This document shows positions 1,095 to 22,472 of a DNA stretch of 64,000 nucleotides, one piece after another. Origin of the DNA: Naegleria gruberi. Its lineage: Eukaryota. A program made the translations under genes and the position numbers. How positions within the stretch are numbered: the first letter of the stretch is position 1; each line of letters begins with the position of its first letter. The stretch lies in assembly GCA_000004985.1 (NCBI GenBank), contig GG738894.1, one strand, 5' to 3'. The notes beneath the pieces are model-generated. The model was not told the origin of the DNA, did not search any database, and saw only the letters and a program-made list of their open reading frames with translations.

Positions 1095-3284
1095 NNNNNN
1101 NNNNNNNNNNNNNNNNNNNNNNNNNNNNNNNNNNNNNNNNNNNNNNNNNNNNNNNNNNNNNNNNNNNNNNNNNNNNNNNNNNNNNNNNNNNNNNNNNNNN
1201 NNNNNNNNNNNNNNNNNNNNNNNNNNNNNNNNNNNNNNNNNNNNNNNNNNNNNNNNNNNNNNNNNNNNNNNNNNNNNNNNNNNNNNNNNNNNNNNNNNNN
1301 NNNNNNNNNNNNNNNNNNNNNNNNNNNNNNNNNNNNNNNNNNNNNNNNNNNNNNNNNNNNNNNNNNNNNNNNNNNNNNNNNNNNNNNNNNNNNNNNNNNN
1401 NNNNNNNNNNNNNNNNNNNNNNNNNNNNNNNNNNNNNNNNNNNNNNNNNNNNNNNNNNNNNNNNNNNNNNNNNNNNNNNNNNNNNNNNNNNNNNNNNNNN
1501 NNNNNNNNNNNNNNNNNNNNNNNNNNNNNNNNNNNNNNNNNNNNNNNNNNNNNNNNNNNNNNNNNNNNNNNNNNNNNNNNNNNNNNNNNNNNNNNNNNNN
1601 NNNNNNNNNNNNNNNNNNNNNNNNNNNNNNNNNNNNNNNNNNNNNNNNNNNNNNNNNNNNNNNNNNNNNNNNNNNNNNNNNNNNNNNNNNNNNNNNNNNN
1701 NNNNNNNNNNNNNNNNNNNNNNNNNNNNNNNNNNNNNNNNNNNNNNNNNNNNNNNNNNNNNNNNNNNNNNNNNNNNNNNNNNNNNNNNNNNNNNNNNNNN
1801 NNNNNNNNNNNNNNNNNNNNNNNNNNNNNNNNNNNNNNNNNNNNNNNNNNNNNNNNNNNNNNNNNNNNNNNNNNNNNNNNNNNNNNNNNNNNNNNNNNNN
1901 NNNNNNNNNNNNNNNNNNNNNNNNNNNNNNNNNNNNNNNNNNNNNNNNNNNNNNNNNNNNNNNNNNNNNNNNNNNNNNNNNNNNNNNNNNNNNNNNNNNN
2001 NNNNNNNNNNNNNNNNNNNNNNNNNNNNNNNNNNNNNNNNNNNNNNNNNNNNNNNNNNNNNNNNNNNNNNNNNNNNNNNNNNNNNNNNNNNNNNNNNNNN
2101 NNNNNNNNNNNNNNNNNNNNNNNNNNNNNNNNNNNNNNNNNNNNNNNNNNNNNNNNNNNNNNNNNNNNNNNNNNNNNNNNNNNNNNNNNNNNNNNNNNNN
2201 NNNNNNNNNNNNNNNNNNNNNNNNNNNNNNNNNNNNNNNNNNNNNNNNNNNNNNNNNNNNNNNNNNNNNNNNNNNNNNNNNNNNNNNNNNNNNNNNNNNN
2301 NNNNNNNNNNNNNNNNNNNNNNNNNNNNNNNNNNNNNNNNNNNNNNNNNNNNNNNNNNNNNNNNNNNNNNNNNNNNNNNNNNNNNNNNNNNNNNNNNNNN
2401 NNNNNNNNNNNNNNNNNNNNNNNNNNNNNNNNNNNNNNNNNNNNNNNNNNNNNNNNNNNNNNNNNNNNNNNNNNNNNNNNNNNNNNNNNNNNNNNNNNNN
2501 NNNNNNNNNNNNNNNNNNNNNNNNNNNNNNNNNNNNNNNNNNNNNNNNNNNNNNNNNNNNNNNNNNNNNNNNNNNNNNNNNNNNNNNNNNNNNNNNNNNN
2601 NNNNNNNNNNNNNNNNNNNNNNNNNNNNNNNNNNNNNNNNNNNNNNNNNNNNNNNNNNNNNNNNNNNNNNNNNNNNNNNNNNNNNNNNNNNNNNNNNNNN
2701 NNNNNNNNNNNNNNNNNNNNNNNNNNNNNNNNNNNNNNNNNNNNNNNNNNNNNNNNNNNNNNNNNNNNNNNNNNNNNNNNNNNNNNNNNNNNNNNNNNNN
2801 NNNNNNNNNNNNNNNNNNNNNNNNNNNNNNNNNNNNNNNNNNNNNNNNNNNNNNNNNNNNNNNNNNNNNNNNNNNNNNNNNNNNNNNNNNNNNNNNNNNN
2901 NNNNNNNNNNNNNNNNNNNNNNNNNNNNNNNNNNNNNNNNNNNNNNNNNNNNNNNNNNNNNNNNNNNNNNNNNNNNNNNNNNNNNNNNNNNNNNNNNNNN
3001 NNNNNNNNNNNNNNNNNNNNNNNNNNNNNNNNNNNNNNNNNNNNNNNNNNNNNNNNNNNNNNNNNNNNNNNNNNNNNNNNNNNNNNNNNNNNNNNNNNNN
3101 NNNNNNNNNNNNNNNNNNNNNNNNNNNNNNNNNNNNNNNNNNNNNNNNNNNNNNNNNNNNNNNNNNNNNNNNNNNNNNNNNNNNNNNNNNNNNNNNNNNN
3201 NNNNNNNNNNNNNNNNNNNNNNNNNNNNNNNNNNNNNNNNNNNNNNNNNNNNNNNNNNNNNNNNNNNNNNNNNNNNNNNNNNNN
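1095..3284. other. Assembly gap, a run of 2,190 N
   Basis: Continuous n characters. All ORFs in the track spanning this interval are artefacts of N translated as X. Confidence 0.99.
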
Positions 3285-9034: not shown

Positions 9035-12000
9035 CTAAGGATGTGTTAGTGAATGTTGTAAAACCTTCTCAATTTCATTTTTAAGCTTATTGAGCATGAT
9101 TGGCTTGTAAAGAACGCTGTCAAATCCAAATTCCTTTAGAGTTTCATAAGTTTCCCAAATATTTGCTGTAATACCAATGATTGGAGTTTTGCTATTTTGC
9201 CCTTGTCGAATCTGGACACTTGCATCTTTTCCATTCATAATTGGCATTAATAGATCCATAAGAATAACCTCATATTTTGATTGTTTACATTTCTCGACTG
9301 AATCCAAGCCATTCTCACAAGAATCCACATTTTCATATCCAATCAATTTCAACAATTTGATAATAACTTTACGATTGATATCATTATCTTCCACAACGAG
9401 GGCTTTCTTCTGAGGAGGTTCAATAGATTTCTCTAAAATATTGGTTGGTGTTAAAAAGAGGTTCGAACTACTTGGAGGAATAATATTCGTTTCACAAGGG
9501 AATAATTTGATATAGTGTAACAGGACATCTACCAACTCTCTAAATCTAACAGGTGATGAAATATAACGTTTGTCATTAAATTGTCCTCTGGCACTAATTG
9601 GAATTGCTAAACATGGTATATTTGAAAAATCTTCAACAGTATTGGCATTATACAATACAATATTATACTTGGTCTTGTCTGCATTCTTACTTATGGCTTC
9701 CAAATCAGATTCGAAAACATTTGAATTTGGGAAGAGGAATTGTAAGTAGGGTTTGATTACTGAACCTGTGAGTGTATTGTGTTTGTCAAGGAGATAAAAT
9801 TCAGGAGTGCAATGATGAATCGACTCGTGCAGTTCCTTTGATAATACTTCAATAGTTCTTTGATTGGATTCAAAGAATTCTGATGAATAATCATCAAAAC
9901 CTGAATAATCCCCAACTAAATTCTTGAGTGGTATTATTATTGTTACCTTGGTATATTCGTCAACTTTACTCTCAATAAATATTCTACCTCCCATCAAGTC
10001 GAGTAAACTCTTTGAAATACTGAGTCCATATCCGTTATTCTCCTTGAAATCTCTTTCCTCATCTTCAATGGCAATATCATTGTTGGTTAAGGACTTTTTG
10101 TAGTATTGCTCAAATATTGGATTGGAACTGTTTTGTATGGTTGAATTGAAAGTTTCTTGATCAACCTTGTAAAATGGCTTTTTAAACAAGTCCTTAGTTT
10201 TGGCCTCTGAAATACCACAACCTGTATCTTTACAAATAAACTTGACATAGGTGTATTCAGGATCTTTCTTGAGGCCAACACGAAGCAAATCCTTATTTGT
10301 GCATTGCTCTGCAGTTAATAGGACGTGTCCCTTGTCAGTATACTTGACTGCATTGCTAAGAATGTTCATTAGTATTTGACAAACTCTCGATTGGTCTCCT
10401 AAAAACATGTACTTTGGTAAGGACTTGAAATTATAGAATGATCCTATGGAAATTCTCTTTTCCTCTGCATTTCTAATGAATACTGCAATCATTGATTCCA
10501 AAATATCGACTAGGTTAATCTTCATTTCATTAAGTTTGATTTTTCCAAGTTCTAAATTTGTCAGTTGTAGTGAAGTAGAGAAAATGTGCAATAATAAATT
10601 AGAATTGTAGTAAATATCATCTAGTGTCTCTCTAAATGATTGACTGTTAAATATTTGACTCTTTTCACTGTTCACAGTCTCATGTTTGAGTAATTGAATG
10701 GAACATAAAATGCCCTGAAGAGGATTTCTGGCTTCATGACTCAAGTTACCAATAAATTTAGTTTTGGCTGTGTTGACAATTTGCTGTTTTAACAATTCCA
10801 ATTGTTTTCTTGCATTATCATCACTTTGTTGTTCCATAATTCGAGAGAACATGTAAGTTCCCACAGTTAGAATGAAATGCAAACCAATAATCTCCAAAAT
10901 TTTGGTTTTCATTTCTTCAAGAATGTATTCATCCATCTTACCTCTAGCATCATACTCCCAAATGTAGGAAATGTAGATTGAAAGACAACATCCAAAAGTT
11001 GCTGTAGCTGTATTAATAAGAGAAAATATTCTCCTATAATAGAAAATATTAACAGATATGATAATTGGGAAAGTTTGCAAAATCCAAAATGGAAAATTAG
11101 GTCCATAGTACGTTTGCACTACAATCCTTCCCATGATTGCAATCAGAGTCCTACAAATATTAATAAGTTCTAGTTTTGGTATTGATTTAATAGTTACTGT
11201 AGAGCATAAAGTATCAATAGTAATATTGAACGACATTTCCACAACAAAACCCAACCAGAAAACGAAATATCCATGTGTAACTGGATTAATAAAAACTAGT
11301 GAAACATAAATAAGTAGGATTGCAATAGCAATCATTAATTTAGGATTTGCTTTTGCTAACTGTTCATGCCTAGATTTGAATTTAATAATTAGAGCTTCAT
11401 CATCCGATAAACTAAACCTCCTGTCTTGTGGTAGAGGTAGAGAAGAAGATGGTGAAGAATCGGGTGTTGAAACAGTTGAAGTACTATTTTCTTCCACTGA
11501 TGTTTTTGTGGCTGTATTGATAGATTGTAAATAGGTAGAAACTTCATGATTATTCAATAGAGAGGACATGAAGAATTTCATAAATCCTCCAGTGAGAGTT
11601 TTCCAATAATATGATGCTGGGTAAGAATTTTCTTCTTCCATATGTTCCGAAGCTTCATTAGCTTCTTGATTGGTGAGAATTAGACTTTCACATGTTGATG
11701 ATACATCACTGCTATCTACTTGACTTGAACTGGATGTTCTTTTTAATTGTTGTTGTTGCTGTTGGGGTGGATGTTGTGAATCTCCTAGAGAGCTGATATG
11801 ACTACCAGAACCAACACCACTCGTTGATTCATATGGTGATGAATTATTGGTAGCACTCGATGTTCTAATCACAATAGGTTCCAAAATACTGTGATCTGTT
11901 AATGATTGATCCTGTTCATAGAAGAGTATAAAACTGTCCTTTCTTTTTTGTTTGTTTCCGACAATCACTTGGTCAATATTACTCAATAATTCATGATGAG

Positions 12001-13039
12001 TTGTTGAAGAACCACTTCCAGAACGTGAGGAAGTATGAAAAGTATAACTATTTGGGAGAAATTGAGTTAGGGATGAGTTAGAATTTGAGGAGGAGATGGA
12101 ATTGGATGCCTTTCTTGTGGTAGGAAAATGGTGAGGAGAAGATGATGGTGTTGTGTTTTGATATGAAGATGAGGATGATCCAACAACATTCGTTGAAGCA
12201 TATTGTCCGTGAATACTTGTTGAATAATTATTATTATTATTATTATTTGACTCGTAGGTGTGCTGTTGTTGTTGTTGTTCTGGATTACTTGTCCAACTAT
12301 TGGCACTATGGCATGATAGGGGTGAAATGCACGGAGATTGATGTTGTGCTTGATGATGGCACTGATGATTATTGTTAGACATGAGGGAAATATTAATACG
12401 AGGTATGGAATGTCTTGCTTGTTGTATATGATGTAAATTCAAAACTTCATATTGAGCATCGTTGGAATCACTAATATCATCAGTAAATTCTTCTTGTTGT
12501 GATTCCTCACCGTTCCTTAAAGCAACATGTTCATGTTGTTGTTGTTGATGACCAGATGAATATTGGTGCCCAAAACAAAATTCATCCAAACCATGTGTAT
12601 TCAAAGAACAAGATTGGGCTTCCTTATCTAGTTGATTGGTTGGAATTGTACCACTACCGCTCGGCATGCTACTTTTTTTGTTAACTGTTTCATCTTCCGA
12701 CATGCTCGCTTGAATAAGATCATTTTGTTGTTCATGTGTGTTGTTGTTGTGTGGAGAGAAGTAAAGCAAAGAAATGGCAGCATCTTGTTGTTGATGAAGA
12801 GTACTTTCATGATGAGGGAGCGGAGAAGCATCTCTTGTGGTAGTATTCGCATCTTGTGGTGCTGATTTGGTGTAAATAATACTAAAAGTGTGTTCATCAT
12901 GTATTGGCGATGATGTTCGACTGGGGTTATCATTGATGTTATCTTTCCGTTCTTCCTTGTTGTTGTGTGTTGTTATTACTGGTTGTTGTGGTGTTGGTTT
13001 AGTATCATGATTGTCCTCACCACCTTCACGTCCAACCAT
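9035..13039 (-). CDS. Hybrid sensor histidine kinase with HisKA, HATPase_c and a C-terminal receiver. It has a polytopic membrane sensor region and a Q/N/H/S-rich N-terminal extension of about 500 aa. Intronless, 1334 aa.
   Basis: Single 1334-aa ORF. H-box IGNLSHEARNPLQGI, N-box NILSNAVKYT, G-boxes DTGCGIS and GYGLSISKSL. Receiver with VVEDNDINRKV...ILMDLLMPIMNG...K. Several hydrophobic helices upstream of the H-box. ATG 13039 in an A-rich context. Confidence 0.85.
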   Translation of the reverse strand: MVGREGGEDNHDTKPTPQQPVITTHNNKEERKDNINDNPSRTSSPIHDEHTFSIIYTKSAPQDANTTTRDASPLPHHESTLHQQQDAAISLLYFSPHNNNTHEQQNDLIQASMSEDETVNKKSSMPSGSGTIPTNQLDKEAQSCSLNTHGLDEFCFGHQYSSGHQQQQHEHVALRNGEESQQEEFTDDISDSNDAQYEVLNLHHIQQARHSIPRINISLMSNNNHQCHHQAQHQSPCISPLSCHSANSWTSNPEQQQQQHTYESNNNNNNNYSTSIHGQYASTNVVGSSSSSYQNTTPSSSPHHFPTTRKASNSISSSNSNSSLTQFLPNSYTFHTSSRSGSGSSTTHHELLSNIDQVIVGNKQKRKDSFILFYEQDQSLTDHSILEPIVIRTSSATNNSSPYESTSGVGSGSHISSLGDSQHPPQQQQQQLKRTSSSSQVDSSDVSSTCESLILTNQEANEASEHMEEENSYPASYYWKTLTGGFMKFFMSSLLNNHEVSTYLQSINTATKTSVEENSTSTVSTPDSSPSSSLPLPQDRRFSLSDDEALIIKFKSRHEQLAKANPKLMIAIAILLIYVSLVFINPVTHGYFVFWLGFVVEMSFNITIDTLCSTVTIKSIPKLELINICRTLIAIMGRIVVQTYYGPNFPFWILQTFPIIISVNIFYYRRIFSLINTATATFGCCLSIYISYIWEYDARGKMDEYILEEMKTKILEIIGLHFILTVGTYMFSRIMEQQSDDNARKQLELLKQQIVNTAKTKFIGNLSHEARNPLQGILCSIQLLKHETVNSEKSQIFNSQSFRETLDDIYYNSNLLLHIFSTSLQLTNLELGKIKLNEMKINLVDILESMIAVFIRNAEEKRISIGSFYNFKSLPKYMFLGDQSRVCQILMNILSNAVKYTDKGHVLLTAEQCTNKDLLRVGLKKDPEYTYVKFICKDTGCGISEAKTKDLFKKPFYKVDQETFNSTIQNSSNPIFEQYYKKSLTNNDIAIEDEERDFKENNGYGLSISKSLLDLMGGRIFIESKVDEYTKVTIIIPLKNLVGDYSGFDDYSSEFFESNQRTIEVLSKELHESIHHCTPEFYLLDKHNTLTGSVIKPYLQFLFPNSNVFESDLEAISKNADKTKYNIVLYNANTVEDFSNIPCLAIPISARGQFNDKRYISSPVRFRELVDVLLHYIKLFPCETNIIPPSSSNLFLTPTNILEKSIEPPQKKALVVEDNDINRKVIIKLLKLIGYENVDSCENGLDSVEKCKQSKYEVILMDLLMPIMNGKDASVQIRQGQNSKTPIIGITANIWETYETLKEFGFDSVLYKPIMLNKLKNEIEKVLQHSLTHP

Positions 13040-15866: not shown

Positions 15867-18800
15867 ATGGCCAAACAATCAAATCAAAGCACCAATGGCT
15901 TTTATTTATCCGTCATGATGATGATCGTGTTTCTATCATTGTGTTGTATGATTGAAAATTCTCTACAACAAAATTTTGTCACCTTCAATTATTATCCAAA
16001 TGAAGGGAAGCTTTTCTCCTCCGATAGCAAATTCGTCAATGTTCAGGGGAGTATTCAAAGTGGTTATTGTAATGCCCTACTGAGTGATTTTGAGCAGTAT
16101 GGAGCATCGGCTTTTTGTTTTTCAGACAATGCTGGTCTGACCATTTATTTGGGATATGGATATTCATTGAGTGGGATTAGATCAGGAACGGACAGTGATG
16201 GAAGATTTGTGAAAATTGAACCAGCTTCTTCTGTTGATTTCAGTGCTGCACTAGATCAGTTAACTATTAATCCTTCGAGAAATTCATATATGATTGTGAG
16301 TGCTGTGGGAAGCTATGTTAATCTGCCAGGAGCTCGATTAAGCTATTCCGTTATTACTAGTGATGCAAAAGTGAATCAATATTTGGCAAAACGTTATCAA
16401 ACTCAAAATCCAATTATTTTCTTTCCATTAACTGAACTTTCTGGTACCTCATTACAAATACAACTTTCTGCTAATTCGTCTGATTGGAATTTGGCGAGAT
16501 CAGCTTCTACGATCATTAAAAATGTTTCGTATGATAGGAGGACATCGTACAACTATGGAAAATCATCAACAAAGTGCGTAGACTATAATTGTTTTATAGA
16601 GACAATGGTAAACGAGACACTTGTGGATAATCCTTCAGTTAATTATTATTTTAATGGAAATTTAGCATCAAGTTTGAATAACTTTCAAATGGCAAAGTTT
16701 ACACCAGCAATTTTTAAATTGACATCTAGTTCTACAACTTTGAAAACTGTTTTCACCACAAACGAAACTTTAAACACTGACATAATAACTGATTCATTTT
16801 CATTATTAACTGGTTATTATTTGAAGAATGGTGATAAAATTCACTCTCAAAGTCAACCGATCACTATCATTTTGGAATCAAGAGACACAAATGCTTTCCC
16901 ATTGGAAGCTATTACTTCTCTGAATTGGTATTTGAGTGTTTCAGCAAGTGTTGACCTTTCTCAATATTCCAACAAGAGATATTTGACATTACCTGCCAAC
17001 ATATTCTCTTCCAATCAAGTTTTGGTAAAAGCAGAGGTCAATTTCAACGATGGAACGCAAATAACTCTTTCAACCACTTTATATATTCAGAATATTGGAA
17101 CTTTAACATTGACTATGGATCCAACAAGCCCATATCTCACATCGGGGGCACAAGTCAATTTGATAACTTATGTAAATGTACCTACAGTTACTATTCAATC
17201 CGTTGTGTATGAAGATAGCGCATCGAAATACATTTCTCTTGATTCAATCAAATCAGAGTTTAATACTAGCTCTATAATTTCCGCAACACTTAAGGCAGAT
17301 ACTCCAGGATCGCTTAGTTTTATGCAAACTATCAAGCTCACTTCAGGAATATCTCTCTATAATTATATTTCAACAAAGGTCATGCCTAAATATCCACTTA
17401 TTTCTGGTTGTTCTGTTTTGCCAAGTTATGGAATCGGTTATGAAGATTTGTTTGGAGTCTCATGTCCAATGGCTCTTGACCAAACCAAGATTTCATCCGT
17501 TAGAGTTGAAGTCTATCAAGACACCGAAAAGCTTTTCACCCTTTTCAATACCAAAACTGCAAACTTTGCAACAAGATTGCCTTTAACCTTAGCAACAACT
17601 AGTAGTTATGTACAGGTAACAATTACAGATATTTTTGGATATTCACACTCGTCTGTCAAATTTTATTACTCTGCTAGTATGAATCAAAATTATCCTACAA
17701 CACTGTTGGGCAGGATTGAAAGGATTCAATTCTATTTGAGCCAAACAAAGGCAAGAAACTTCCAAACGGCAACTAATTATGGTATATTGTTAAACTTGTT
17801 AACAAATGGCATGCTCACAAGTGCTACCGCAATTGAAATTTCTCAATATTCAGTACAATGGAACTCATTCTTGGATTATTTTGTATCTGAATTGGATATT
17901 CTAAGAAGAACCATTTTTCACAGCTCTGTCTACGATAGGGCTGTACCATTATTGGCACCTCTACTTAGAGAAATTGTTGATTTTGCCGATAAGGTTTCGG
18001 CATACACAACTTTAATATCAACAAAGAAACAAGTGCTTGTACAAAATGCAGAATTTTTGATTAGTAATGACAAATCAGGATGGCTATCTACGAGGGATCG
18101 TGCAGCTATTGTCAGAATTTTGGGATCAGTCACTGCTTCAGATCAAACAACGTTTTGGAATGTTACCTCATTAACAGATATTTCAGATTTCAGCACAGCT
18201 TTCAAATCACAACTTTCCAAGTTAGATTCCATGTTTAACAGAGGATTAGATTTATCTCCTTTTGGATTTAATAAGCAAATTAGCAAATTTGATACACTAT
18301 TCGATTTATCATCAGCCCAGAGAAGCATTTCAGGTTTGACAGTTCAAATGCCAGCATTAACTCTCAATGATTATGGTTATCCAGCCAATAGCTATTCTCT
18401 CTTACTTACAAGTTATGATATTTCAACTCAAGTATCCTCAAAGAAATTTAGTCTAAGTACTGGAAACTATTCAAGGTTTTGTGGAAATACACTCTTTTCA
18501 ATTGATGTTGGAAGGAGTGATGGAAGTATTTTGGGAGTTTCAGGACTCTCATCACCTATTATTCTCACAATGGATTTATCTCTTGATAGTTCTTTAGCCA
18601 CTTCAATTAGTAGTGTTAATTTTACTTGTAGATATTTGGCTGAAAACAATATGTGGTCTACGAGTGGTGTGGCAACAGAGGTCGTAACAGTTGGTTCAGC
18701 ATCAGTTAAAGTCAGATGTAAAAGTAACCATCTCAGTACCTTTACAGTTTTTGCAGATGATGTTTATGTCTCCACAACTAATAATTCAACAACCTCAAAT

Positions 18801-20036
18801 ACCGATAAGGTAATACAATCAGGATTATCGCAAGGAGAAATTGCTGCTGCTGTGGTAGTGCCTGTCGTTGTTGTTTTAATTATTACTGTAATTATTATTG
18901 GAATTGTTATTTTCCTGTTATTGAGAATGAAGAGAAAGAAAAAAGCTAATACAGCAGAACCTAAAAAGATGAAGAAAGAAATCAATGCTTACCAAGCTGA
19001 TTCAGTTAAATATGACGACCTAAAGATTGAAATGAGCAGTAACATGTTTATCTCTGATTACAAATCGCTCAATTCGAATACTATTCCTTCTGCAACTTCT
19101 GTTCAATCAACAGAGACACCAACGAGTTATAATGTTACAACTCCATCCACATCTACGAATGTCATTAACAAGAAATATGAAATTTTGGAAAAGATTGGTG
19201 CAGGAGGTTTCGGCGCAGTTTTTAGAGCTAGAAACTTGTTTTTCAATCATGGATCCAAAACTGTCAATGATTTGGAATATTATGCCATTAAGAAGATTCA
19301 ATTATCTGGTCTGTCCGAGTTGAATGACAAATTCAAGGAAGCTGTCAACATGTTCAAGATTCGTCACGAAAATTTAGTATCCTTGGAAGATGCAGTGGTT
19401 GATGAATCAACCAATTCCCTCTATCTAGTAATGAAATTTTATGGAAATGGAGATTTGGATCATTTTGTAAAGAGTAAGAGAATGCTTCCAGAACAAGTAC
19501 TTAAACAAATCATTGTTCAGGTTTGCAGAGGTTTGAAATATTTGGAAGAAGAAAGAGGTTTAATTCACAGAGATATCAAACCATCCAATGTATTTGTTGA
19601 ATATTTCGATTCTGAAAGAGATAACATTAAGGTAGTAGTGTCTGACTTTGGTTTAGCCAAAGAGTCGAACATGATGACTTCAGTTTCGTTTGCAGGAACA
19701 CCATTTTTCATGAGTCCACAAGCATTAATTGGTTCCAAGTACAGTTTCAATGCTGACATATTTTCACTAGGTTGTAGCATCTTTTTAATGATTACACACG
19801 ACATGTCCTCATCCATTGCTCAATTATACTTCCAAAAAGCAGGAAATCAAGGTCAGGTACATGAATTTATCAGAGACAATATTAAGAAGGCATGCCAGAA
19901 TAGTAGAACAATTTCATACAGTGATGAATTTATCGATATTTTATTGAAATTAATGGAATTTGATGCAGATACTAGACCTAATGCAGCAAAAGTTTTGGAA
20001 ATGATTGAAAATTCAGTGGAAATTACAACTGTTTAA
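15867..20036 (+). CDS. Receptor-like Ser/Thr protein kinase. Signal peptide, large glycosylated ectodomain ending in a GPS/GAIN-like motif, single TM, cytoplasmic kinase. Intronless, 1389 aa.
   Basis: N-terminal hydrophobic signal. About 980-aa ectodomain with many N-x-S/T sites. Near the membrane, FTCRYLAENNMWSTSGV...VKVRCKSNHLSTFTVFA resembles the GPS (C..W..C.C.HL..F) signature. TM is AAAVVVPVVVVLIITVIIIGIVIFLLL. Kinase motifs GAGGFGAV, AIKK, HRDIKPSN, DFGLAK. Confidence 0.75.
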   Translation: MAKQSNQSTNGFYLSVMMMIVFLSLCCMIENSLQQNFVTFNYYPNEGKLFSSDSKFVNVQGSIQSGYCNALLSDFEQYGASAFCFSDNAGLTIYLGYGYSLSGIRSGTDSDGRFVKIEPASSVDFSAALDQLTINPSRNSYMIVSAVGSYVNLPGARLSYSVITSDAKVNQYLAKRYQTQNPIIFFPLTELSGTSLQIQLSANSSDWNLARSASTIIKNVSYDRRTSYNYGKSSTKCVDYNCFIETMVNETLVDNPSVNYYFNGNLASSLNNFQMAKFTPAIFKLTSSSTTLKTVFTTNETLNTDIITDSFSLLTGYYLKNGDKIHSQSQPITIILESRDTNAFPLEAITSLNWYLSVSASVDLSQYSNKRYLTLPANIFSSNQVLVKAEVNFNDGTQITLSTTLYIQNIGTLTLTMDPTSPYLTSGAQVNLITYVNVPTVTIQSVVYEDSASKYISLDSIKSEFNTSSIISATLKADTPGSLSFMQTIKLTSGISLYNYISTKVMPKYPLISGCSVLPSYGIGYEDLFGVSCPMALDQTKISSVRVEVYQDTEKLFTLFNTKTANFATRLPLTLATTSSYVQVTITDIFGYSHSSVKFYYSASMNQNYPTTLLGRIERIQFYLSQTKARNFQTATNYGILLNLLTNGMLTSATAIEISQYSVQWNSFLDYFVSELDILRRTIFHSSVYDRAVPLLAPLLREIVDFADKVSAYTTLISTKKQVLVQNAEFLISNDKSGWLSTRDRAAIVRILGSVTASDQTTFWNVTSLTDISDFSTAFKSQLSKLDSMFNRGLDLSPFGFNKQISKFDTLFDLSSAQRSISGLTVQMPALTLNDYGYPANSYSLLLTSYDISTQVSSKKFSLSTGNYSRFCGNTLFSIDVGRSDGSILGVSGLSSPIILTMDLSLDSSLATSISSVNFTCRYLAENNMWSTSGVATEVVTVGSASVKVRCKSNHLSTFTVFADDVYVSTTNNSTTSNTDKVIQSGLSQGEIAAAVVVPVVVVLIITVIIIGIVIFLLLRMKRKKKANTAEPKKMKKEINAYQADSVKYDDLKIEMSSNMFISDYKSLNSNTIPSATSVQSTETPTSYNVTTPSTSTNVINKKYEILEKIGAGGFGAVFRARNLFFNHGSKTVNDLEYYAIKKIQLSGLSELNDKFKEAVNMFKIRHENLVSLEDAVVDESTNSLYLVMKFYGNGDLDHFVKSKRMLPEQVLKQIIVQVCRGLKYLEEERGLIHRDIKPSNVFVEYFDSERDNIKVVVSDFGLAKESNMMTSVSFAGTPFFMSPQALIGSKYSFNADIFSLGCSIFLMITHDMSSSIAQLYFQKAGNQGQVHEFIRDNIKKACQNSRTISYSDEFIDILLKLMEFDADTRPNAAKVLEMIENSVEITTV

Positions 20037-20367
20037 TGAACATTGTATATTTTCTACAGTTCAAATAAATAGTAGATTTATCAAACTACTATTTGCAAAT
20101 GTTATTCAAAAGAACAACAACTATGTTTCCAATTCCTAGTCCTTGTTCATTATTTAGAATGCAAGGAATTATCTGTTCTACATCCAGAACTATCAAACTA
20201 ACCACCATAGACAAGTGATATTTTAAACTCATAGTCGAACAGCAGTTCTCTGAAAACTTCATTGTAATACATTGATTGAAAGGGGCGGTCCAATTTTGTA
20301 TGTCGTTTCTTCTTTATTTAAACGAAAGCAGTTCAGGCTAACGAATACAACAACAATCAAAAAAAAA

Positions 20368-21531
20368 ATGTCGAAACTCAGAATTATTCTCGCTGTTGTG
20401 CTTGTTTGCATGGTAGCAGCATGTTGTATTGCCGAAACCACAGAAAGTGGAGAGTGGAAAGTTAAACTTCGTAATGAAGATTGTAAGAGAGAAATGAAAT
20501 TCTCCTTGTCAGATTCGAATAAGGTTGCCGAAATTGAATCCACTGGTGGATGTAAATCAAAGGACCCAGAAGGACTTATTCAAGGTTCTATTGCTAATAT
20601 TGAATTCCAATTTAATGTCAAGAAGGTGCCACTTGTCAGAATGAAAGCTCACACTGCTGTCAAAGTTGATAATGGACCAACCAAAGTTGTTAACATGGGT
20701 GGTTTGTTTGGATTCGAAAGATTATTCGAATATATTAACAATGATGGAAAGGATGGTTATCAAGTTAATGGAACAGACACTATCGTTCGTTCAATTGACT
20801 TGTCAACTGTTTCTTGGTCTCAAATCACAGTTCAAAAGACAGTTTTGAATGGTTCTTCAAATTCTTTCATTTATGAAGCTTCTTCCCAAGCAACTATTGC
20901 CAATTGGTGTACTTTCAAAATGTCAGCTGTCGTTTCTACTAGTGAAGTTCAAGTTACAAGCAATAAGACTCTTTCTCGTTCTGGAGTTATTCAAGTTTTG
21001 ACTCCTTCCTCACTCAAAGTTAATGTTGAATTGACAAATATTCAATATACTGCTGGTAATTCCTTATTAGGTATTAGTTCTATCACTGCTTATCGTGGAA
21101 ATTTGAAAGAAAAACCAACTCAAGATAAGCCAGTTGAAGAAAAGCCAGATGATGCTTCTCCTGATCAAGCTGTTAATCAATTTGATGGAGATGTCACTGA
21201 TCAAACTGGTTCTTCAGCAGTTGTTTTGCCAAAAGCATTCTTCTCATTCCAAACATTTGTTTCTAAATATCCAACTAGCTCACCAACAAGTATTTCTAGA
21301 TCTACTTTGGGAGTTTCACCATTCGTTGATGCTAACGAAGATTCTGTCAAGCAAATCAGAGATGATTTTGACACTAAGGGAAAGGTAAAGAGATTTTATG
21401 TCTCCTTATTGGAAAGAGTTGATAATTTCGTTTGGGATCCGACTGTTGGATCAAGCACATCTGGAAGTAATGGAATTTGGAGAGGATTCAGTGTTGTTTT
21501 GATGATTTGTTTTGCTTTCTTCATGTTGTAA
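20368..21531 (+). CDS. Secreted, probably GPI-anchored, cell-surface protein of unknown function
   Basis: ATG at 20368 in an A8 context. N-terminal signal MSKLRIILAVVLVCMVAACCIA, S/T-rich body, C-terminal hydrophobic tail GFSVVLMICFAFFML typical of a GPI-attachment signal. Confidence 0.5.
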   Translation: MSKLRIILAVVLVCMVAACCIAETTESGEWKVKLRNEDCKREMKFSLSDSNKVAEIESTGGCKSKDPEGLIQGSIANIEFQFNVKKVPLVRMKAHTAVKVDNGPTKVVNMGGLFGFERLFEYINNDGKDGYQVNGTDTIVRSIDLSTVSWSQITVQKTVLNGSSNSFIYEASSQATIANWCTFKMSAVVSTSEVQVTSNKTLSRSGVIQVLTPSSLKVNVELTNIQYTAGNSLLGISSITAYRGNLKEKPTQDKPVEEKPDDASPDQAVNQFDGDVTDQTGSSAVVLPKAFFSFQTFVSKYPTSSPTSISRSTLGVSPFVDANEDSVKQIRDDFDTKGKVKRFYVSLLERVDNFVWDPTVGSSTSGSNGIWRGFSVVLMICFAFFML

Positions 21532-21728: not shown

Positions 21729-22472
21729 ATGATTCGACAACTTCAGGTAGCTTTCGGCTTGTTTATTTGCTGTGCATTTCTTCTGCATGTTGCACTGTGC
21801 ATTCCACCTGGACAAGTTGTGAACATTAACAATTGGTATCTTACCCTTCCAATAGGAAGCTATAAGAATCCACAAAACATCTACCAGCCGAATCTAAACA
21901 CATTCGAAAGTGATCCGTATTTTGTTACTGGAAACGATGGAAACAGCATTAGATTTAGAGTTCCAATCCATAAACAAACTGTTACAACATCTGGAAGTAG
22001 TTATCCAAGAACTGAGTTGAGAGAAATGGATTCGTCTAATCCTTCCAAGACGAAAGTTGCTTGGACGAATTCAGATAAAGGAGTTCATACCATGATTATT
22101 GATCAGGCAATCACTCACCTCCCAATCAAGAGAAATCGACTTGCGGCAGGTCAAATCCACGATGACAATGAATTTGTCATTATTATTCAATTGACAGGAA
22201 GTCAACTTTTTGTAAAAACAAATAAGAATGCAAATGCCAAAGTTTTAGATAGTAACTATCAATTAGGCACTAGATTCCTCTTGAAAATCGAAGGATTTGG
22301 TGGAATTACCAATATTTATTATAATGACATGACGAAAGCTGCCTATTCCTATGAATATTCGTATAAGAATGCCTATTTCAAAGCAGGATGTTATTCGCAA
22401 TCAAATTGTGATTATGAACAAGAATTGTGTACAGACACTTCGTTTGTTGAGATTGTTTATGGAAATATTTAA
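21729..22472 (+). CDS. Secreted polysaccharide-lyase family 7 (alginate lyase 2-like) protein
   Basis: Signal peptide, then the three PL7 signature blocks in order: YPRTELREM (R-S/T-E-L-R-E), QIHDD (QIH) and YFKAGCYSQ (YFKAG-V/I-Y-N/S-Q). The 247-aa size fits a single jelly-roll PL7 catalytic module. Confidence 0.6.
   Translation: MIRQLQVAFGLFICCAFLLHVALCIPPGQVVNINNWYLTLPIGSYKNPQNIYQPNLNTFESDPYFVTGNDGNSIRFRVPIHKQTVTTSGSSYPRTELREMDSSNPSKTKVAWTNSDKGVHTMIIDQAITHLPIKRNRLAAGQIHDDNEFVIIIQLTGSQLFVKTNKNANAKVLDSNYQLGTRFLLKIEGFGGITNIYYNDMTKAAYSYEYSYKNAYFKAGCYSQSNCDYEQELCTDTSFVEIVYGNI

Follow-up and report, generated by a model that had tools for sequence, protein, structure and literature searches.

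NAEGRDRAFT_59090 encodes a predicted single-pass receptor kinase

We analyzed a 64-kb stretch of Naegleria gruberi DNA, referred to here as the window. The open reading frame at 15867..20036 on the + strand, on which all features given below lie, is NAEGRDRAFT_59090 and matches the NCBI protein with 100% identity and 100% coverage. The gene is single-exon, with an uninterrupted frame of 1389 aa followed by a stop codon. Its product is laid out as a signal peptide, an ectodomain of ~960 aa, one transmembrane (TM) helix and a Ser/Thr kinase. A Kyte-Doolittle scan predicted the signal peptide at residues 1-33 (15867..15965), with a hydrophobic core at ~12-30 and a putative cleavage position. Besides this segment, only residues 992-1020 (18840..18926) rose above the hydropathy threshold. 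This single TM helix is preceded by what reads as a Ser/Thr/Asn-rich extracellular stalk, residues 966-991 (18762..18839; pLDDT < 50), and is followed by the positive-inside cluster RMKRKKK. N-glycosylation sequons are found N-terminal to the TM helix in 11 of 12 cases. From these sequence features we infer that NAEGRDRAFT_59090 is a type I single-pass receptor kinase with the ectodomain outside and the kinase inside.

The Ser/Thr protein kinase domain spans residues 1104-1378 (19176..20000; Pkinase PF00069, E=1.9e-43). A preliminary description of this DNA had proposed a single TM segment followed by a cytoplasmic Ser/Thr kinase, and the one helix at 992-1020 and the Pkinase match bear this out. 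We found the G-loop GAGGFG (1111-1116), K1142, E1158, HRDIKPSN (1234-1241, with H1234, D1236 and N1241) and DFG (1260), and an alignment of three Naegleria species indicated that the catalytic residues are kept in each. The APE motif reads SPQ in NAEGRDRAFT_59090, and its glutamate is changed to Gln in two of the three homologs. Judged from its sequence the kinase is apparently catalytically competent. Its closest sequence relatives in the PDB are ULK1/2, CAMK1 and NEK7/2. Between the membrane and the kinase the same three-species alignment revealed a cytoplasmic juxtamembrane motif, SSNMFISDYKS (residues 1057-1067, 19035..19067), with the consensus SSxLFIS(D/E)Y(K/R)S kept in 3/3 species.

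The N-terminal part of the ectodomain, residues 34-612 (15966..17702), is an orphan region, rich in predicted strands and carrying several N-glycosylation sequons. It gave no Pfam match and no PDB sequence match. The AF2 model of this region has a mean pLDDT of 37.8, and Foldseek returned only generic FnIII, Ig and PKD-like sandwiches. In this low-confidence model, residues ~316-408 and ~516-600 are predicted Ig/FnIII/PKD-like beta-sandwiches. We considered a REJ or PKD1-like identity for the region, which is unsupported given these search results and a model too poor to decide it. The region is homologous to residues 891 onward of the N. fowleri protein P0002 and to the upstream ORF at the N. 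lovaniensis locus.

Homologs with the same domain order are present in two other Naegleria species

When the ectodomain was used as a phmmer query we obtained 3 matches among 1.84 billion representatives. This exhaustive HMMER search was the one that recovered the two homologs. The word-index protein search with the ectodomain returned NAEGRDRAFT_59090 itself only, and the 3-sequence GAIN alignment, used as a query, gave no matches. A word-index search with GAIN subdomain B, the TM helix and the kinase together returned only P0003 and unrelated kinases (24-36% identity). The Ser/Thr-rich composition probably swamped the word candidates in these searches.

The homologs are N. fowleri FDP41_011216 and N. 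lovaniensis C9374_012141, and both have the order ectodomain, GPS, TM helix and kinase. Thus, a search of related genomes, which the preliminary description had called for, did find the same architecture elsewhere. Ectodomain identity across the three species is 25-31%. The N. fowleri homolog has EGF repeats added upstream of the GAIN domain, and its automatic UniRef name is 'GPS domain-containing protein'. In N. lovaniensis the gene is annotated in two pieces; there is a local frameshift, and homology resumes in another frame. The neighbors of the N. lovaniensis locus differ (VPS13, LRR genes), and the three genes are compared here as homologs.

The juxtamembrane motif is a GPS

The GPS motif occupies residues 921-962 (18627..18752) and aligns to positions 3-44 of 45 of the Pfam profile PF01825, with C921, W930, C951, H955, L956, S957 and F959 as its defining residues. 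The peptide reads C921-RYLAENNMW930-STSGV...VRC951-KSN-H955-L956-S957-TFTVF962. The strings on which the GPS was originally proposed, a juxtamembrane Cys/Trp spacing with an HL-S/T-F context, are therefore present as written. When the isolated 171-aa region was searched, PF01825 was the sole family reported, with E=1.7e-4 and a score of 22.5 bits, exactly the gathering cutoff. In full-length NAEGRDRAFT_59090 the match was E=0.002 and 19.0 bits, under the 22.5-bit cutoff. PF01825 matched 3/3 members of the Naegleria family, with a best E of 6.4e-6. This outcome of the HMM search supports the preliminary description, with NAEGRDRAFT_59090 itself standing at the cutoff.

We found that C, W, C, H, L and F of the GPS are invariant in the alignment of the three homologs, and that the HL(S/T) site is kept as HLS, HLT and HLT. 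The predicted autoproteolysis site, H955-L956 / S957 (18729..18737), falls in the model secondary structure in the turn that joins the last two strands, 946-953 to 958-965. A relaxed GPS regular expression, written after the motif was seen, gave one match in the six-frame translation of the window. When the ectodomain was shuffled 200,000 times with its composition preserved, the same expression matched 2 of the shuffled sequences, a count that is only indicative given the post hoc pattern.

A reduced cysteine pattern is also seen in PKD1-type GPS motifs. In CL1 the GPS disulfides are C801-C832 and C820-C834 (PMC3321182). Compared with CL1, NAEGRDRAFT_59090 keeps Cys1 (C921) and Cys3 (C951), while the positions of Cys2 and Cys4 are occupied by V935 and S953. 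This leaves a single canonical GPS disulfide out of two. A real homolog with one bridge lost would be expected to look like this. We conclude that the juxtamembrane motif of NAEGRDRAFT_59090 is a real GPS.

The membrane-proximal ectodomain resembles a GAIN domain

Model ma7967becc2b5, which was built from the 3-sequence alignment and is of moderate confidence (mean pLDDT 59, pTM 0.41), consists of helices followed by ~13 strands, with HL/S in the turn preceding the last strand. Residues ~613-785 (17703..18221) form a candidate GAIN subdomain A of ~9 predicted helices in a bundle. Residues ~802-965 (18270..18761) correspond to GAIN subdomain B, with ~12-13 strands and the GPS at its end. The predicted structure thus has the two-subdomain GAIN layout, in which subdomain A is helical and subdomain B is a beta-sandwich ending in the GPS. 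Foldseek returned four matches at E<=1e-3, all of them GAIN domains, with BAI3 the best. The alignments to GAIN structures cover 340-379 columns and include both subdomains, and the global TM-scores are low (0.25-0.30). Structure prediction, which had been proposed as a check on the GAIN assignment, was thus favorable to it within the confidence of the model.

We found the same relationship at the level of sequence profiles. The only matches at E<=10 of the Naegleria family profile against PDB sequences were two aGPCR GAIN domains, ADGRG1 (E=0.013) and ADGRD1 (E=5.3, not significant alone). Both alignments are in register, with the 'NLssPilLTF' strand, C..W, C and HLT.FAV. This result required the family profile; a single-sequence phmmer search of the PDB with residues 613-986 gave no GAIN match. 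The Pfam scan of the full-length protein gave no model of the GAIN helical subdomain at E<=10. An assignment to the broader superfold of autoproteolytic ZU5/Nup98-type beta-sandwiches, in place of GAIN proper, was also considered, and we regard it as highly unlikely.

Several observations could be taken to mean that the motif arose by chance in a low-complexity, Ser/Thr-rich ectodomain, or that the GAIN-kinase fusion is an artefact of the gene model. The full-length Pfam score is sub-threshold, the ectodomain composition is biased enough to swamp word-index searches, and the N. lovaniensis gene is annotated as two. However, the motif is kept in three species with the GPS HMM matching each of them, so rare a result among the shuffles argues against chance, and the independent sequence-profile and fold evidence agree. 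The reading frame is continuous through ectodomain, TM helix and kinase in both N. gruberi and N. fowleri, and the N. lovaniensis split reflects the local frameshift, beyond which homologous sequence goes on. Chance or artefact is largely refuted and in our judgment very improbable. Our data suggest instead that the membrane-proximal ectodomain is, with fair likelihood, a genuine GAIN domain with an intact H-L/S site, carried on a single-pass receptor Ser/Thr kinase.

NAEGRDRAFT_59090 differs from known GAIN proteins and from known receptor kinases

The GAIN region matches the adhesion GPCRs (for example CD97/ADGRE5, GPR56/ADGRG1, BAI3 and the latrophilins) best, both in structure and by profile. 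Like NAEGRDRAFT_59090 they combine a large adhesion-type ectodomain with a GAIN domain and GPS next to the membrane, and the HL/S/T site lies in the turn preceding the last beta-strand. The EGF repeats upstream of GAIN in the N. fowleri homolog likewise recall the EGF-TM7 receptors. In contrast to these class B2 receptors, NAEGRDRAFT_59090 has one TM helix and not seven, lacks the 7TM tethered-agonist pocket, has one GPS disulfide and not two, and has a fused Ser/Thr kinase as its output in place of a G protein. Consistent with this, Pfam gave no 7tm family in the protein at E<=10 and there is one hydrophobic segment after the GPS.

Polycystin-1, PKD1-like and REJ proteins share with NAEGRDRAFT_59090 a GAIN/GPS outside the GPCR context that follows a very large ectodomain. 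However, polycystin-1 and PKD1-like proteins have 11 TM helices where NAEGRDRAFT_59090 has one, and NAEGRDRAFT_59090 has in addition a kinase output. No REJ, PLAT/LH2 or PKD_channel family was found in the protein at E<=10 with Pfam. The polycystin-1/REJ family also has members with few TM helices, and sea-urchin suREJ1 is a GPS protein with a single one. With one TM helix and no PLAT or REJ domain, NAEGRDRAFT_59090 belongs with neither the adhesion GPCRs nor the PKD1-like proteins.

GPS motifs have already been published in the genus. The N. fowleri 7TM-RGS proteins have EGF-like/lectin ectodomains and a membrane-adjacent GPS and were proposed to be adhesion-type sensors (Bosch et al. 2022, PMC9283941). 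They share the genus and the membrane-adjacent GPS with NAEGRDRAFT_59090. Their GPS is followed by a 7TM domain fused to an RGS box, whereas that of NAEGRDRAFT_59090 is followed by one TM helix fused to a kinase. Pfam found no RGS or 7TM domain in NAEGRDRAFT_59090, the C-terminus of which is a protein kinase, and the N. fowleri GPS-7TM-RGS proteins were absent from the 3 phmmer ectodomain matches among 1.84 billion representatives. The gene probably arose by shuffling of an ectodomain-GAIN cassette, which Naegleria also uses before 7TM-RGS proteins.

The receptor kinases GDT and DRK of Dictyostelium, also an amoeboid protist, have a signal peptide, an ectodomain, one TM helix and a cytoplasmic ePK, as does NAEGRDRAFT_59090 (PMC1420674). 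However, these are TKL-group kinases with lineage-specific, unrelated ectodomains and no reported GPS or GAIN, whereas the kinase of NAEGRDRAFT_59090 is nearest to ULK, CAMK and NEK types.

GAIN has been studied almost only as an autoproteolytic module that presents a tethered agonist in adhesion GPCRs and polycystin-1. Our literature search found no paper describing a GAIN domain followed by a single TM helix and a kinase. A 2025 survey of GAIN-domain models still names adhesion GPCRs and polycystin-1 as the only known GAIN-containing families (PMC11697300). The earlier suggestion that this architecture may belong to no described family agrees with our literature search and has to be narrowed in three respects: single-pass GPS proteins such as suREJ1 exist, the automatic UniRef name of the N. 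fowleri homolog mentions the GPS, and GPS motifs were already published in N. fowleri (PMC9283941).

A GAIN domain may act as a switch for a fused kinase

We infer that the GAIN domain may be cleaved and coupled to the kinase. It would cleave itself at L956/S957 during biosynthesis. The N-terminal fragment of ~920 aa would serve as an adhesion or ligand-binding ectodomain, and the C-terminal fragment of ~430 aa would comprise the strand, stalk, TM helix and kinase. The last beta-strand (S957-TFTVFAD) would hold the N-terminal fragment non-covalently on the C-terminal fragment. This strand cannot be a tethered agonist in the adhesion-GPCR sense because there is no 7TM bundle. A ligand or a mechanical pull would instead destabilize or remove the N-terminal fragment and thereby cause an oligomeric or conformational change of the membrane-anchored kinase. 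The GAIN domain would then be a portable switch, proteolytic or mechanical, placed on a kinase output.

Many true GAIN domains with seemingly good sites stay uncleaved, and the HL/S sequence is therefore no proof of proteolysis. It is conceivable that NAEGRDRAFT_59090 is a GAIN-fold receptor kinase in which cleavage is absent or irrelevant, the domain being a rigid membrane-proximal stalk or folding module and the kinase being switched on by ligand-induced dimerization as in classical single-pass receptor kinases. We regard this as possible rather than probable. CL1 holds its scissile turn with two disulfides, of which NAEGRDRAFT_59090 has just one, and the structure of BAI3, the top Foldseek match, is uncleaved, so the fold exists without cleavage (PMC3321182). 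The single-pass GDT and DRK receptor kinases of Dictyostelium are likewise thought to act by ligand sensing (PMC1420674). However, the H, the L, the S/T nucleophile and the F at +3 are either unchanged or conservatively substituted in ectodomains that are only 25-31% identical, which argues for selection on the site itself. We tentatively propose that NAEGRDRAFT_59090 could be a functional 'adhesion receptor kinase' in Naegleria, in which the GAIN domain self-cleaves and the fused Ser/Thr kinase is switched across one TM helix when a ligand or force drives off the N-terminal fragment.

A GAIN domain placed on a kinase through one helix separates functions, since autoproteolysis and shedding of the N-terminal fragment are possible and 7TM agonism is not. 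The GAIN-kinase is thus a natural test of whether the GAIN fold works generally as a mechanical or proteolytic switch, and it adds a heterolobosean to the evidence on how old GAIN is and how the domain has been shuffled. If the proposal is true, it would add a third class of GAIN output, one without a tethered-agonist pocket, beside the 7TM and PKD1 11TM cores. Together with the Naegleria GPS-7TM-RGS proteins it would also identify GAIN as a portable mechano-proteolytic switch in a discoban only distantly related to animals, one that predates the adhesion-GPCR mechanism and is more modular. The EGF-bearing homolog comes from the lethal pathogen N. fowleri and is a candidate surface-exposed sensor with a possibly druggable kinase domain.

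Identity and layout of the receptor kinase

The ORF at 15867..20036(+) runs for 1389 codons in a single reading frame without interruption, and its translation matches the Naegleria gruberi protein NAEGRDRAFT_59090 of NCBI with 100% identity. That entry is named "hypothetical protein" and its precomputed Pfam annotation lists kinase domains only. Using a hydropathy scan we found only two hydrophobic segments, a signal-peptide-like core at the N-terminus and a transmembrane (TM) helix at residues 992-1020 with RMKRKKK directly after it. All but one of the 12 N-glycosylation sequons lie N-terminal to this helix. On the cytoplasmic side, residues 1104-1378 match the Pfam protein kinase domain (E = 1.9e-43), and the G-loop, K1142, E1158, HRDIKPSN and DFG are present and kept in all three Naegleria species described below. 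The closest solved kinases are ULK1/2, CAMK1 and NEK7/2, thus this Ser/Thr kinase does not belong to the TKL receptor-kinase families. The linker between the TM helix and the kinase is divergent except for SSxLFIS(D/E)Y(K/R)S at residues 1057-1067 (19035-19067), which occurs in all three homologues and might serve for docking or be phosphorylated.

The preliminary description had proposed a cytoplasmic Ser/Thr kinase joined through one TM helix to an ectodomain that bears a GPS-like motif. The hydropathy and Pfam results show that this layout is real, and the motif it quoted was found exactly: C921-RYLAENNMW930-STSGV...VRC951-KSN-H955-L956-S957-TFTVF962. NAEGRDRAFT_59090 is single-pass with type I topology; its membrane-proximal domain is of the GAIN type, its HL|S site is intact and its kinase is apparently competent. 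The most fitting name for it is GAIN-domain receptor Ser/Thr kinase.

Homologues in other Naegleria species

We searched 1.84 billion representative proteins exhaustively with the ectodomain (HMMER) and obtained only two relatives, both from Naegleria: N. fowleri FDP41_011216 (2316 aa, E = 8.5e-27) and N. lovaniensis C9374_012141 (806 aa, E = 5.6e-13). In both, one TM helix and then a closely related kinase come after the GPS motif. The N. fowleri protein is homologous to the N. gruberi protein in the N-terminal ectodomain as well, and carries an additional N-terminal region (residues ~1-890) with some eight EGF repeats of the teneurin type and a weak match to a beta-propeller repeat (SBBP). 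Its EGF-GAIN layout recalls the EGF-TM7 adhesion GPCRs.

The N. lovaniensis homologue (PYSW02000055.1, 7977-12421) is annotated as two genes of 663 aa and 806 aa with 33 nt between them. The 663-aa upstream ORF aligns with the N. gruberi ectodomain (E = 7e-10). Since homologous sequence runs on in another frame across the junction, the split points to a local frameshift, which could be either an assembly error or the mark of a pseudogene. So far GAIN-domain receptor kinases are seen as a small family in three Naegleria species.

The GPS motif

In the full-length protein the Pfam GPS model (PF01825) aligned with residues 921-961 through positions 3-44 of its 45, with E = 0.002 and 19.0 bits, which falls below the gathering score of 22.5 bits. 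With the isolated ~170-aa region, GPS was the sole family matched, and its score of 22.5 bits (E = 1.7e-4) coincides with the cutoff. The corresponding isolated regions of all three homologues match GPS (best E = 6.4e-6), which upholds the assignment. The motif reads CRYLQESTGDW...VKCQTTHLTTFSVF in N. fowleri and CRYFLESNSVW...ITCSTNHLTSFAVF in N. lovaniensis, and UniRef labels FDP41_011216 a "GPS domain-containing protein". A relaxed GPS pattern occurs once across all six frames of the window and arose in 2 of 200,000 ectodomain shuffles, a frequency that is indicative only, as the pattern was composed post hoc.

The crystal structure of CL1 contains the disulfides C801-C832 and C820-C834 (PMC3321182). 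We found that the Naegleria homologues retain cysteines 1 and 3, and that the other bridge has lost its two cysteines (V935 and S953 stand in their place in N. gruberi). Such a one-bridge pattern would be expected of a true homologue after it dispensed with one disulfide.

The predicted GAIN fold

A profile of the three Naegleria sequences was searched against all PDB chain sequences. The best match of the 390-aa profile was the GAIN domain of GPR56/ADGRG1 (E = 0.037). With subdomain B (residues ~802-965) only two sequences were found at E<=10, both adhesion-GPCR GAIN domains (ADGRG1, E = 0.013; ADGRD1, E = 5.3), and the alignment stays in register for ~100 residues (the "NLssPilLTF" strand, Cys, Trp, Cys, HLT.FAV). 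We then modeled residues 595-986 with AlphaFold2 from the three-sequence alignment. The model is of moderate confidence only (mean pLDDT 59, pTM 0.41; ~70 in the GPS strands) and consists of ~9 helices followed by 12-13 strands, with H955-L956-S957 lying in the turn that joins the last two strands. Foldseek returned exactly four PDB matches at E<=1e-3, all four of them GAIN domains, over 340-379 aligned columns: BAI3 (4dlo, E = 9.6e-8), CELSR1 (E = 4.9e-7), ADGRL3 (E = 8e-5) and CD97 (E = 3.1e-4). At this threshold the moderate-confidence model resembles GAIN domains only, in agreement with the PDB profile matches, and the interpretation as a GAIN-domain receptor kinase is supported.

The first 580 residues of the ectodomain matched nothing in Pfam or among the PDB sequences. 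Their model (pLDDT 37.8) is not useful, and its only similarities were to generic sandwiches (FnIII, Ig, PKD-like). A polycystin-1-like REJ module thus has no support.

Proposed mechanism and comparison with known receptors

We propose that the GAIN domain self-cleaves between L956 and S957 and that the ~920-aa N-terminal fragment would remain attached through the S957-TFTVFAD strand. Ligand or force acting on this fragment may then change the state of the ~430-aa membrane-anchored kinase fragment. The protein lacks a 7TM bundle, so the S957 strand cannot be a tethered agonist of the adhesion-GPCR kind. Alternatively, the GAIN fold may be kept as an uncleaved stalk with the kinase under ordinary ligand-induced dimerisation. 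We consider this main rival less likely. H, L, S/T and F(+3) are conserved across ectodomains that are no more than 25-31% identical. Such conservation argues for selection on the predicted HL|S/T cleavage site, and is not proof of cleavage. Putative autoproteolysis coupled to kinase signalling is the key functional claim for this protein.

In its ectodomain build, and presumably in its working, NAEGRDRAFT_59090 is like the adhesion GPCRs and polycystin-1. However, a single TM helix in place of a 7TM bundle excludes it from the former, and the single helix together with the absence of PLAT, REJ and channel domains excludes it from the latter. N. fowleri EGF/lectin-GPS-7TM-RGS proteins carry GPS motifs (PMC9283941), so the module is not new to Naegleria. 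A literature search of incomplete coverage found no paper on a protein in which GAIN/GPS is joined to a kinase by a single TM helix. What is new in this protein is how known modules are combined, not the kind of module.

Genomic surroundings

The window opens with CCCAAA (TTTGGG in the complementary strand) repeated 48 times in tandem at 1-288. The array resembles a telomere repeat at the scaffold end and the region looks subtelomeric, which would place the gene ~16 kb from the chromosome end. An assembly gap of 2190 N (1095-3284) accounts for the very low GC of the first 4 kb and for the long ORFs listed there, which are spurious. The neighbouring genes, among them an acyl-CoA oxidase gene upstream, are unrelated to the receptor kinase. 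Further upstream, about 3 kb from the receptor kinase, 9035-13039 (-) encodes a hybrid histidine kinase of 1334 aa with HisKA, HATPase_c and Response_reg domains. Directly downstream, the 419-aa ORF at 20272-21531 (+) gave no Pfam match and has hydrophobic segments near both termini, as would a secreted GPI-anchored surface protein. It is followed at 21729-22472 (+) by a 247-aa secreted-looking protein matching Alginate_lyase2 (PF08787, E = 1.6e-33), a family unusual in an amoeboflagellate, and horizontal acquisition of this gene is possible.
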